DNA of 64,000 nt from IMG/VR virus record IMGVR_UViG_3300033066_001054; one strand, 5' to 3'. Shown here in pieces: positions 4,112-14,929 of the stretch. The position numbers and the translations under genes were made by a program. How positions within the stretch are numbered: position 1 is the stretch's first letter; the number at the start of each line of letters is the position of its first letter. Source of the DNA: a virus. Its lineage: Duplodnaviria; Caudoviricetes. Under the pieces are notes generated by a model. It saw nothing but the letters and a program-made list of their open reading frames with translations. It did no database searches and was not told the DNA's origin.

Positions 4112-4187
4112 AACATCGAATATAACACGTATGGCGGGGAAAACGACCTGAAGGATGCTAAACTTGAATTTAGTATCTGAGTGCAAA

Positions 4188-4258
4188 AAGAGATTGATGT
4201 ATTGTTAACATGCCGAGCTTTGAACTCGGATAAGCTGGTTAGATTCCAGTATCTCATC
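4188..4258 (+). tRNA. degenerate tRNA-Gln(UUG)-like element
   Basis: D stem ATGT/ACAT, anticodon arm CCGAG-CTTTGAA-CTCGG, T arm GCTGG-TTAGATT-CCAGT, acceptor GAGAT/ATCTC; imperfect acceptor, non-canonical T loop, no CCA. Confidence 0.55.
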
Positions 4259-4325
4259 GGTTAAGCGAAGGGTTCGCGCACTTTCTTATAAAAAGTGAGT
4301 CCTGGTTCGACTCCAGGTAACTAGG
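4257..4325 (+). tRNA. degenerate tRNA-Ile(UAU)-like element
   Basis: D arm GCGAA-GGG-TTCGC, anticodon arm ACTTT-CTTATAA-AAAGT, T arm CCTGG-TTCGACT-CCAGG, weak acceptor GGTTA/TAACT; no CCA. Confidence 0.55.
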
Positions 4326-4388
4326 CACGGTGTGTCGGGCACCGCTATACATATATTCGATTTGGTAGAATTTACAAGTTACAACCAG

Positions 4389-4420
4389 GGCGCGGAAAAC
4401 GACTTCGGTCGGGCATCGCT
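4389..4420 (+). ncRNA. small structured RNA motif (UUCG-capped copy of the helix enclosing the tRNA-like pair)
   Basis: GGCGCGGAAAACGAC-TTCG-GTCGGGCATCGCT matches 4133-4147 and 4334-4346; preceded by TGGTAGAAT. Confidence 0.5.
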
Positions 4421-4448
4421 CACAAATTTAGAGATATTTGAAGACAAT

Positions 4449-4479: not shown

Positions 4480-4520
4480 GCTTTATTGGATTCTCCCTAT
4501 ATCAAACACAATCCGTTCCA

Positions 4521-4943
4521 TTATGCATTTACTGATTCTGGCGCAAGCAGATATTGCACAATACTATTCACATCTGCTCGTTGTATTTCGAGCATATTAA
4601 GCATCTTAGTGCATAGTAATCCAATTTGTTGTCGTGCCAGAGTTAGGTCGGGCGATAAGTTGAGGAATGCTCTTTTCATAGCAACACTGTGTAAGAAAAT
4701 CGTGCTCATAACTGGGTCTTGCGCGAATGCCTGCTTTGCTCGATTTACTATAACGAACGAGCGCGGAGTTTTCCCAGGCGCACCGCGTTGAGTTTGAGAC
4801 ATATTTGCTGTATTTGCTGTATTTGCTTTGTCGTCTCTGTTCCAAAAGTCTGAAAACTTTCTATACATTTTTGAGACATCTTGTGCTTTTTGAGCGTGTC
4901 GTTTTTGTTCCATATGTATGTATATACAGTTCCTGTCCATCAA
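4521..4943 (-). CDS. hypothetical protein
   Basis: 140-aa ORF ending next to the terminator; contains 9-bp tandem repeat (ANTANTAN); start uncertain. Confidence 0.5.
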   Translation of the reverse strand: MMDRNCIYIHMEQKRHAQKAQDVSKMYRKFSDFWNRDDKANTANTANMSQTQRGAPGKTPRSFVIVNRAKQAFAQDPVMSTIFLHSVAMKRAFLNLSPDLTLARQQIGLLCTKMLNMLEIQRADVNSIVQYLLAPESVNA

Positions 4944-5279
4944 TACCTTTGCTTTATAACAGTTTTATAAGAGTCTTGGTCTTCGATTCGCCTTGCGCAG
5001 AAAATCGAGCTACATCGAGTCACGGGGCAGCGGCGCTGGTAGGTGTTTTGCGGACCAGGGAGCACGACGCGAGGTACGGTTTCCACTTCATACAGGCTGC
5101 CCCGAAATTATTCATCTTGATTTTCGAGCCACTCTTCAAAGCACTCGATGCACATGCCTCGAAAGGTTCCAGTCACTTCTTTACCGCAGGTTTTGCATTT
5201 CATCGGTATGTATATTCCGGTGGCCCAGGTTCAAACGGACAGAATTTCGAGCTTTTTTCGAAAAAAGTGCCTTGGGGCC

Positions 5280-5308
5280 TTGACATCATCCGGCGTTTCT
5301 GGCATAAT
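5280..5308 (+). promoter_or_regulatory. sigma70-type promoter of large ncRNA
   Basis: TTGACA 5280-5285, 17 nt, TGG-CATAAT 5303-5308. Confidence 0.8.
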
Positions 5309-5314
5309 ATCAAT

Positions 5315-5973
5315 GTACTTCCGCGAATGGAACGAGAAAATCGAAACGAGAAATCGAGGCGCGATTAAACTCCTCCAGGTCGAGAGACAAACTACGAAAA
5401 CACTGGGTTTCCACAAGATTGCCAGCACGTATCGAAAGTGGTCGCGGAATTCGAAGAACAAGCGTAAGCTAGACTCGTGAACGCCACCGAGTACGGTCTT
5501 CGATGCAGGCAAAGTCTCAATCGCTTTGCCGAACGTGAAAATTTCATACCACCGACTGAGGAACGAGTCTGGAATAGCCCCCAGACGAACTGCGCAAGCA
5601 GCGAGTATCCAACAGAGCTCGTGAACGAAAGGAAGCTAGTAACGAGAAGCCTGGCAGGCGAAAAGAAATCGAGTCGTGAGATTCGTCGGTGGTATGGAAA
5701 GTAAACTGTATAGTGCAGGGGAGGGCCCCGACGAGTCCAAACTCCCGTGAGGCGAAGCCGGTCCGCTTAACCCCTGCACTGTGTAGTGAAATGGTTCTTA
5801 GGTAGGTCTTCGCGGGCTGACGACGAGTTTCTTAGTTCATCACAATTTCGCCTCGAACAGAGTTTGGTTTAACCGCCGGTTCTGCTTAGGGTAATGTGGT
5901 GGAGTCCCAATCACGGGGCGAAGCCAGGCGGAGAGAATAAAGGGTAGACCTTCGGGTCTGCCCTTTTTCTTTT
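5315..5973 (+). ncRNA. large (~650 nt) structured non-coding RNA, family not identified
   Basis: long-range helices 5542-5556/5685-5699, 5706-5721/5771-5786 (G-U wobbles), 5354-5361/5849-5856; several GNRA hairpins; bounded by promoter and terminator; no convincing ORF. Confidence 0.75.
5941..5973 (+). terminator. intrinsic terminator
   Basis: AGGGTAGACC-TTCG-GGTCTGCCCT plus T tract. Confidence 0.85.
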
Positions 5974-6077
5974 ATGCTATACTCTGTGTGCAATCATTTC
6001 GCGGCCCCGGAAACCAGCTTCGCTGGTTAAAATATCGAGCGGCCCCGGAAATCGAGTCGCAGGAGTTAAAACAAATC

Positions 6078-13218: not shown

Positions 13219-14352
13219 ATGACGACAATGACAGTCCGAAAACAGTGCTCACTTTTCTGCCGAGAAGGGTCATCTGACAAAGAATACAACATCTTCATTG
13301 AAGATTCAGCAACAGTACCCGGCGCTTATGACGTGCGTGCGACATGGGGGCGTCGAGGCGCAGCACGAGACTCGCAATACAAGGCCAACGGCGTCACTAT
13401 GCTTCAGGCAGAAGCGACGCTTATGAGTCTGAAGCGTTCGAAGGAAGCCAAGCGATATCGAGAAGACCCCAGTCTTGCTCAGGGTACTCCACTCACTGCT
13501 GTACCTGCGGCGACGATTGTTTCGAACACGGCCGCTGCTCCGGCAACTCCAGAGCGCGAATACACTGAGCTCAAGCCGCAATTGCTCAACCCGATTACGG
13601 TTGATGATATGGAAACGTACATCACGAGCGATGAATGGCTGGCGCAAGAAAAACTCGATGGCAAGCGAATCATGGTTGAGGTCAACTTCGGCCAGATTAC
13701 TGCAAGCAATCGACGTTCGTGGAAGGTCGGAATCCCGCAAGATGTAGCTGAAGAACTCTCGAAGTTCGATGACTGCATTCTCGATGGAGAGCTGGTTGGT
13801 GGAGTTTATTACGTCTTTGACTGTCTTGGTCACAACGGCGAGGACTTGCGTAGCGACTCGTACATGAACAGATTCAACCGATTGGTTGAGAGCGTAATTG
13901 GCGACCGTATGCTGTATCAAGTAGACATCGTGCCAACTGCTTACAGCACGGATGACAAGCGCAATCTGGTCAAATCACTTGAACACAAGGAAGGTGTGGT
14001 GTTCAAGCTATTGAGCGCACCGCACGAGGTGGGTCGACCTAATAAGCTCGGTTCGCAACTCAAGTGCAAATTCTGGTCAAGCGCAACGTGTGTTGTTTCT
14101 GCGGTTAATACCAAGCGAAGCATCGCCGTGTCCGTTGATTCGCCGGATGGCTTCGTGCCTGTTGGTAACGTCACGGTTCCGCCGAACCATGAACTGCCAA
14201 ATGTTGGTGATTGTGTAGAGGTGAAGTATCTCTATGCTCATAAAGAAGGGTCATTGTATCAACCACAATACTTAGGCACTCGTGATGATGTTGAAATAGA
14301 CATACATTCAAGTCTTAAGTTCAAGGCTGAAGATGAAGACTCTGACTATTAG
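13219..14352 (+). CDS. WGR-domain ATP-dependent DNA ligase
   Basis: SSDKEY...WGRRG; motif I AQEKLDGKR, ILDGELV, YVFD, EGVVFK, LKCK; C-terminal OB fold. Confidence 0.88.
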   Translation: MTTMTVRKQCSLFCREGSSDKEYNIFIEDSATVPGAYDVRATWGRRGAARDSQYKANGVTMLQAEATLMSLKRSKEAKRYREDPSLAQGTPLTAVPAATIVSNTAAAPATPEREYTELKPQLLNPITVDDMETYITSDEWLAQEKLDGKRIMVEVNFGQITASNRRSWKVGIPQDVAEELSKFDDCILDGELVGGVYYVFDCLGHNGEDLRSDSYMNRFNRLVESVIGDRMLYQVDIVPTAYSTDDKRNLVKSLEHKEGVVFKLLSAPHEVGRPNKLGSQLKCKFWSSATCVVSAVNTKRSIAVSVDSPDGFVPVGNVTVPPNHELPNVGDCVEVKYLYAHKEGSLYQPQYLGTRDDVEIDIHSSLKFKAEDEDSDY

Positions 14353-14929
14353 GCATGGATTTATTTACGAAATCCGAAACACAATCAATAACAAGCGATA
14401 TGTGGGTTCCACTGTTTCTCTAAAAGAGCGGTGGAAACTACATATCAACAACCTTCGCAAAGGTACTCATCACTCATTGTTGTTGCAACGTGCGTTTGAC
14501 AAATATGGCTTGGATGCTTTTGAATTCAATGTACTAGAGTGCGTGCTGGATTCCAGGCATAATCTACAGATTGAGCAAAAATACCTAGACACTAAGCCCG
14601 AATACAACCGTGCGTTAAAAGCAGGCGCTCCTCGTCTTGGTGCAAAGTCAACACCAGAACACTGTGCCAGAATGAGCGCGGCCCTCAAAGGCAGGGCCGG
14701 GGTCAATAATGGCAAAAAGTTTTCAGACGAGCACAAAGAAAAAATCAGCAAAGCACTTACTGGTTATAGGCGAGGACCAATGAGTGACGAACTTAAACAA
14801 AAACGCTCTGAAGCACTTTTGGCTTATTGGTCCAGAATGAGGGAGCAGGATACAATGCCAAAAAGAAAATTGACCGAAGCACACAAAGCCAACATCAAAG
14901 CATCATTGTTGGCCAGGAAGAACAAATGA
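14333..14929 (+). CDS. GIY-YIG homing endonuclease with NUMOD3-like repeats
   Basis: GFIYEIRNTINNKRYVGS...RWKLH...LQRAFDKYG...IEQKYLD...YN; SDEHKEKISKA repeats; more AT-rich than neighbours. Confidence 0.9.
   Translation: MKTLTIRHGFIYEIRNTINNKRYVGSTVSLKERWKLHINNLRKGTHHSLLLQRAFDKYGLDAFEFNVLECVLDSRHNLQIEQKYLDTKPEYNRALKAGAPRLGAKSTPEHCARMSAALKGRAGVNNGKKFSDEHKEKISKALTGYRRGPMSDELKQKRSEALLAYWSRMREQDTMPKRKLTEAHKANIKASLLARKNK

Follow-up and report, generated by a model that had tools for sequence, protein, structure and literature searches.

A predicted ~655-nt structured RNA of an uncatalogued family beside tRNA genes in a jumbo-phage lineage

Few bacterial or phage RNAs longer than 500 nt with complex folds have been described. 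Amongst them, GOLLD and ROOL are found in phages, near tRNA genes, each as its own large RNA, and both assemble as RNA-only cages (10.1101/2024.12.08.627333; PMC5737381). ROOL is abundant, yet it is non-essential in one strain (10.1101/2024.12.08.627333; PMC5737381), and pull-downs reportedly show GOLLD bound to ribosomes (PMC12286853, preprint text). The stretch of phage DNA analysed here (64,000 nt of IMG/VR record IMGVR_UViG_3300033066_001054, hereafter the window) presents the same type of setting, a stand-alone large phage RNA near tRNA genes. The gene for this RNA, of ~655 nt, is predicted to run from promoter to terminator at 5315-5972 on the + strand. Comparison with related loci shows an RNA gene that is conserved, structured, non-coding and modular. 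We lean towards the view that its product is a stand-alone accessory RNA of an uncatalogued family, acting like the GOLLD and ROOL scaffolds. The initial annotation of this DNA had likewise read a large structured + strand non-coding RNA near tRNAs with its own promoter and terminator, and this much of it stands; a link to the adjacent gene array and an internal pseudoknot between 5724 and 5914, which it also offered, are not supported.

The likeness to GOLLD (RF02032; PMC12286853) is that of a large ornate phage RNA near tRNAs whose domains are separable, whose linker varies and which has GNRA loops and pseudoknots. However, it is the 3' domain that is optional here, next to conserved 5' and middle domains, and in GOLLD the arrangement is the other way round. 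ROOL (RF03087; PMC5737381) is similar in size (~580-660 nt), in its occurrence in phages and prophages near tRNAs, and in its multistem junctions and pseudoknots, but its 5' half is intertwined with its 3' half; the window RNA instead folds as four consecutive domains. The raiA motif and OLE RNA are also large compact bacterial non-coding RNAs with conserved cores and optional peripheral stems, from which the window RNA differs in being phage-borne, in size and architecture, and in having no Rfam match. Indeed, cmscan searches of the window, its sub-regions and the relatives against Rfam 15, at gathering thresholds or at E<=10, gave nothing relevant, even with short sub-regions included, where filters are lax. 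The failure of the initial annotation to match GOLLD, ROOL, RNase P, tmRNA or group I/II introns is borne out, no such family being matched.

For GOLLD this negative result has a positive control. RF02032, which models the conserved 3' domain, had no match on the RNA at E<=10 but recovered separate GOLLD-like RNAs in two relatives, G001 and G002, at 113 and 118 bits (E ~1e-31), below the cut-off of 150 bits. These lie 86 kb and ~120 kb from the large RNA, with which they have chance 10-mers in common at most. They are located at L080 ~1020-1975 (G001 233,300) and in L079 (G002 C5 412,450), and the G001 copy seems to contain a tRNA-like insert (L080 ~1565-1640). RF03087 likewise gave no cmscan match at E<=10, and ROOL was not found in a genome-level search that had no positive control. 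No palindromic kissing loop with covariation was found in the RNA, so oligomerisation stays an analogy to GOLLD and ROOL. A description of the RNA was not found in the literature, the large candidate list of PMC10690425, which may contain it, lying outside this comparison. By these searches the RNA appears to be a new family of the ornate phage RNA kind and a member of no catalogued family.

The genes of the window are phage-like in content, and the source of the RNA appears to be a jumbo-phage lineage. The relative G001 is a complete virus of 478,840 bp with terminal repeats, and in the relative L019/G002 a phage region of >150 kb is embedded in a contig of 1.36 Mb from an Armatimonadetes MAG. 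This bacterial contig carries phage genes, the motif array and the GOLLD-like RNA at G002 C5 ~243,000-413,000, which suggests either a prophage of very large size or chimerism in the assembly. It is the sole pointer to the host, and gives a hint only; a marker protein of the neighbourhood was absent in 400 other genomes of the same phylum. GATC is missing from all 64 kb of the window and TCGA is strongly enriched, a composition that suggests avoidance of host restriction and perhaps a favoured modification site.

The RNA gene sits between a small tRNA unit and a co-oriented array of ~75 genes. The tRNA-like genes (4188-4326), for which relatives have tRNAs at the equivalent place, have poor acceptor stems. 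They are bracketed by a two-part conserved RNA motif (4133-4150, 4326-4346 and 4389-4421) that is also present as an empty copy with a UUCG cap. The motif has no Rfam match, is kept in every relative (L011, L013, L015, L017, L019, L020, L074, L075 and L078), including those without the large RNA, and may be a processing signal for degenerate tRNAs. A second conserved structured element without an Rfam match (~4985-5110) lies downstream of the tRNA terminator and upstream of the RNA promoter. It is closed by a 9-bp helix (~5021-5029 with 5100-5108) retained with changes in L011, L013, L017, L020, L074, L075 and L078. Upstream of the RNA there is also a variable insertion site (window 4480-4960, compared with L001 7845-8810, L008 and L009), which holds a 140-aa ORF in the window, nothing in L008 and, in L001-L007, a peptidoglycan-binding protein gene in place of the tRNA unit.

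Syntenic loci fetched via flanking proteins, with one metagenome match added, placed the RNA at this locus in ten further assemblies, giving ten homologues. Seven are complete or nearly so and are 80-98% identical to the window RNA (L001, L008 and L022, 98%; L011, 89%; L013, 87%; L020, 84%; L075, 80%). L078 has the 5' domain and the core with a different 3' part, and the divergent L074, at a contig end, has the 5' domain and the first 28 nt of the core, which survive as an exact match to domain II. In L019, on the Armatimonadetes contig, the same slot holds a very stable RNA of ~570 nt (14274-14850; z -8.3) with no Rfam match. By eye it shares with the window RNA the 5' start, both words of the pseudoknot described below and a UCAA loop. 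With filters off, a model of the 5' domain had one match in 11 kb of L019, inside this RNA (E 0.04); with default filters it was not detected. These likenesses weakly support homology, and the L019 RNA is probably domain I with a ~270-nt insert and without domains II-IV.

Two relatives, L015 and L017, have no such RNA, their slots holding just 110- and 250-nt sequences. Both are placed within a supported clade (95/98) of RNA-bearing phages in a midpoint-rooted tree, so that the RNA seems to have been lost, if that root is right. L001 and L075 have identical neighbouring proteins, yet their RNAs are 98% and 80% identical to that of the window, which points to swapping by recombination. Domains that are gained, lost or swapped, and two close phages without the RNA, indicate that it is conserved but accessory. 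Its known range is narrow. A blastn search of GenBank phages and plasmids gave no match, and pattern scans of IMG/VR found one related genome and no others. A pattern scan of GTDB gave 42 matches, all by chance, and a core model, run over 151 genomes from the same phylum as the L019 MAG, gave a single match, spurious and in coding sequence. Contig P0159 was not syntenic.

The limits of the gene are predicted from its promoter and terminator. A host-type sigma-70 promoter is predicted at 5280-5308 on the + strand (-35 at 5280-85, extended -10 at 5300-08), scoring 11/12 against consensus plus the TG extension. The -35 hexamer is retained in nine of the ten loci compared, with a variable spacer; L013 keeps the extended -10 and not the -35 hexamer. 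The eight RNA-bearing loci among these ten begin with GU ~7 nt past the -10, and this spacing, with the invariant first G, would put the start site at ~5315. An intrinsic terminator (5939-5973, +) follows, with a 12-bp stem (5939-5966), a UUCG loop and a U tract, and its stem shows two-sided changes in L013 and L075. Both the TTGACA-17-CATAAT promoter and the strong terminator that the initial annotation had pointed out are found at the locus and kept in its relatives. Directly 3' of the terminator is an extended -10-like element (5975-5983, +), identical in the window, L001, L011, L013, L020 and L075, variant in L017 and absent in L015 and L019, which may serve the array head as its own host promoter.

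Folding energy by itself is a modest guide. Against shuffles, the whole region has a z-score of -2.55 with the terminator and -1.96 without it; the score is -4.9 for domain II and -4.0 for domain III and ~0 for domains I and IV. Stems of at least 15 bp, G-U pairs allowed, are present in 14 of 103 window tiles. With energies this modest and long stems this common, the case rests on comparison. Across eight sequences, pairing within the 5' 390 nt holds in 98.1% of aligned cells (31-39% in slid registers), and 15 of 105 pairs show a two-sided change, compared with 5.2 in shuffles, none of 500 reaching as high. These statistics lean to the favourable side, the structure having been derived from the same alignment of related sequences. 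With about eight distinct but related sequences, in which most pairs are invariant and uninformative, no R-scape-level support is claimed.

One-sided changes mostly preserve pairing as G-U, which indicates that the + strand acts as RNA. Tetraloops change within the GNRA class (GUAA/GCAA/GUGA; GAGA/GAAA), and both kinds of change are typical of + strand RNA. These observations agree with two earlier proposals, of GNRA hairpins and of a + strand RNA deduced from G-U pairs. The sequence words quoted in the initial annotation are all present where they were placed. Of the long helices proposed at the same time, 5542-56/5685-99, 5706-21/5771-86 (with three G-U pairs) and 5508-14/5524-30 are kept, with compensatory or G-U-consistent changes in homologues. 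The long-range helix 5354-61/5849-56 is unsupported, since it has one-sided changes in L011 and L075 and its 3' partner is missing in L013. Bases 5358-61 covary with 5482-85 instead of joining 5849-56, and the long-range helix is probably wrong.

The predicted + strand fold is a series of domains. Domain I (5315-5538) is a multi-junction 5' domain closed by the 5' end, 5316-18 with 5535-37, where pair 5317:5536 is A-U in four sequences and C-G in four. Inside this domain lie a GNRA hairpin at 5379-88, a stem that varies (~5398-5432), a three-way junction at 5450-5502 and, at 5508-30, a hairpin whose UCAA loop is conserved; the domain is collinear in the divergent L074. A probable 4-bp pseudoknot joins 5358-61 to the hairpin loop 5482-85. 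This pairing is Watson-Crick in all eight aligned rows, with 5359:5484 changing between G-C and A-U, and of seven registers tested this one alone is fully paired. A strict scan left seven column pairs, one of which, 5359-5484, sits in this helix, which crosses the nested fold. The A-U form is also found in L074 and L019, both outside the alignment. Trees need two or three changes at 5359:5484, with one still possible, and the rows that vary there also vary at column 5381; for these two reasons the pseudoknot is graded as probable.

Domain II (5542-5699), the most conserved core, is a 15-bp helix closing a multi-way junction. It includes a loop-E-type module (5618-46), GNRA hairpins (5590-5601 and 5670-85) and purine-rich linkers, with two-sided changes at 5619:5645, 5620:5644 and 5622:5642 and also in the hairpins. 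Domain III (5706-5786) is a long irregular hairpin with two-sided changes in L013 and L075; its hypervariable apex (5735-62) holds most of the differences amongst the 98%-identical relatives. A variable linker (5787-5845) carries an insertion of ~60 nt in L020 and a conserved word (5814-26) that the loop 5573-80 could pair with, for which no supporting covariation was found. Domain IV (5846-5933) is an optional 3' domain, absent in L013 and rebuilt with different hairpins in L075.

The position of this sequence at the boundary of a polar gene array could in principle suit a DNA-level element, such as an origin or a packaging or injection signal, and a small-protein gene might be sought in the 75-aa ORF at 5477-5704, the most persistent of the region, which is open in six close homologues. 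However, a frameshift in L075 and stops in L078 interrupt this ORF, and the G-U-consistent changes, the GNRA interchange and the promoter-terminator pair indicate an RNA, so we rate either explanation as very improbable. The earlier statement that there is no credible ORF holds more generally: the overlapping ORFs, of 51-187 aa, are broken by stops or frameshifts in at least one homologue, except for the shortest, a 51-aa minus-strand ORF that has no internal stop but is aligned just in part. The absence of ORF conservation indicates that the RNA region is non-coding.

Several features of the RNA recall catalytic RNAs. The purine-rich core (5553-5690) is highly conserved, with junction sequence kept beyond the needs of pairing, and loop-E-type, GNRA and tandem-GA motifs are present as in large ribozymes. 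A new or derived ribozyme, related to group II introns, RNase P or the hammerhead, might process the odd tRNA units, with their poor acceptor stems, or the array mRNAs. The resemblance to group II introns and their permuted forms (PMC8637638) consists of loop E, GNRA, long-range loop pairing and a large ORF-less RNA; but circularly permuted group II RNAs are defined by domains 5 and 6 (PMC8637638), and the window RNA has neither of these domains, nor splice boundaries. No domain 5 hairpin (AGC/CGC triad, 2-nt bulge) was found in six homologues with a descriptor that recovers two of three control introns, and RF00029 gave no match. The domain 1 model RF02001 had no match in the complete relative G001, which also has no reverse transcriptase, and alignments to real group II introns were no better than shuffles. 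No RNase P core is present: a P4-like pairing (5734-45/5861-71) is limited to the window and its near-identical relatives L008 and L022, its 3' strand being absent in L013. With no Rfam match to group I/II introns, RNase P or hammerhead at E<=10, a ribozyme seems improbable.

Other candidates were tried and dropped. ARAGORN finds no tmRNA, with its tRNA-like ends and tag ORF; the RNA is intergenic with its own promoter and terminator, which argues against a group I intron. A CUGANGA-type word at 5817-23 recalls the hammerhead, but it has no conserved stem II or GAAA, and the domain downstream is missing in L013. T-box-like and anti-Shine-Dalgarno readings lacked conservation or significance.

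The reported ribosome binding of GOLLD in pull-downs (PMC12286853) also prompts comparison with rRNA. Domain II might mimic modules of 23S rRNA domain I and act as a decoy that sequesters ribosomal proteins or ribonucleases directed against the phage. In E. coli 23S rRNA, the best local match is that of nt 441-483 with window 5622-5667, and there is a similar module near nt 190-235. However, 64 of 300 shuffles score as high as this match, which is thus not significant, and the core model gives no match to 23S rRNA. The loop-E strands of the RNA pair upstream, unlike those of 23S helix 23. A decoy role, like a ribozyme, seems improbable.

The array downstream extends over 45 kb (window 6001-51670), each of its ~75 genes having a 10-bp GC-rich motif upstream. 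There are 63 matches to the motif at <=1 mismatch, compared with 0.8 expected, the first copy lying outside the RNA at 6001-6011 (+). The distance from motif to ATG is 37-38 nt in 55 of the 56 scored copies, and a Shine-Dalgarno-like word precedes 13 of the 56 scored genes; most array genes have ATC just before the ATG. The array is shared by G001, where 81 copies lie on one strand, and by G002. As the RNA heads the array and a sigma-70-like gene lies 2.8 kb upstream of it, the RNA could be taken for a guide or adaptor for the motif, in RNA-guided promoter recognition with the sigma-like protein or in cassette recombination. That gene (1613-2512), which has weak region 2 and region 4 matches, is kept in all relatives, with 19 homologues found in total, and its product is a candidate reader of the motif.

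Besides the fixed motif-ATG spacing, a guide role has in its favour a 7-nt same-sense match at 5724-30 (GGCCCCG), the word on which the initial annotation had based its array link. However, this 7-mer is altered in L013 and L075, where the match drops to 5-6 nt elsewhere whilst the arrays keep the canonical motif, and antisense matches are of 5-6 nt and not conserved. The G-run 5914-19, put forward as its partner in an internal pseudoknot, forms a local pairing with 5904-07; L075 has a different hairpin in its place, and in L013 the whole enclosing domain is gone. The RNA has no 14-nt match, and one 13-nt match, in the rest of the window, and L015 and L017 keep arrays, with lineage-specific motif variants, without having the RNA. 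Taken together, these points make base-pairing guidance unlikely. A guide RNA of Cas12f/TnpB type is disfavoured by the lack of an adjacent nuclease gene and of a conserved match to the array motif, the three Cas12f/TnpB-like genes of a relative lying 34-180 kb away. The guide explanation seems largely refuted already, and we give it hardly any credence. An RNA of a new class that acts by its structure and not by base-pairing to the motif, as a ribozyme or as a partner of the host or phage polymerase or the ribosome, and so switches expression to the ~75 Shine-Dalgarno-poor array genes, is also decidedly unlikely.

The RNA might alternatively be a cis-acting leader, an attenuator or antitermination element (cf. 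HK022 put or riboswitch leaders) controlling read-through from the strong host promoter into the 45-kb array. A promoter-RNA-terminator slot precedes the first array motif in every relative, including the replacements in L015 and L017, and it is this constancy that keeps such a role possible. Many array motifs, moreover, form part of terminator-like hairpins, and 5718-26 could form 9 bp with the 3' arm of the terminator, with one two-sided change. However, this pairing could form only if the 16-bp helix of domain III opened, and local helices account for part of its changes. The terminator is strong and covarying, and the extended -10 element after it, together with a motif at fixed distance before each array gene, means that read-through into the array is not needed. 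A length of 650 nt with optional domains also far exceeds what such leaders need. On balance, control of the array in cis seems unlikely.

Returning to the stand-alone scaffold, the host sigma-70 RNA polymerase would make the RNA early and as a separate transcript, as it would the neighbouring tRNA unit. The RNA would adopt a compact tertiary fold held by the pseudoknot and by A-minor and tetraloop contacts, and would act in trans without catalysis, in the manner of GOLLD and ROOL, either self-assembling or binding host translation or RNA-processing components during takeover. Its location at the head of the array may then reflect an island of RNA genes read by the host polymerase, and not pairing with the array motif.

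The new RNA would add to the large phage RNAs a family with a distinct architecture, alongside which G001 and G002 also carry a GOLLD-like RNA. The narrow known range and the lack of a cultured phage-host pair limit the weight of the finding, but the RNA should be a good target for cryo-EM. It also comes with a series of natural deletion variants: L013 has no domain IV, L078 has a different 3' part, L019 probably has domain I with a large insert, and L015 and L017 have no RNA at all. These variants allow one to ask which domains fold, oligomerise or bind partners.
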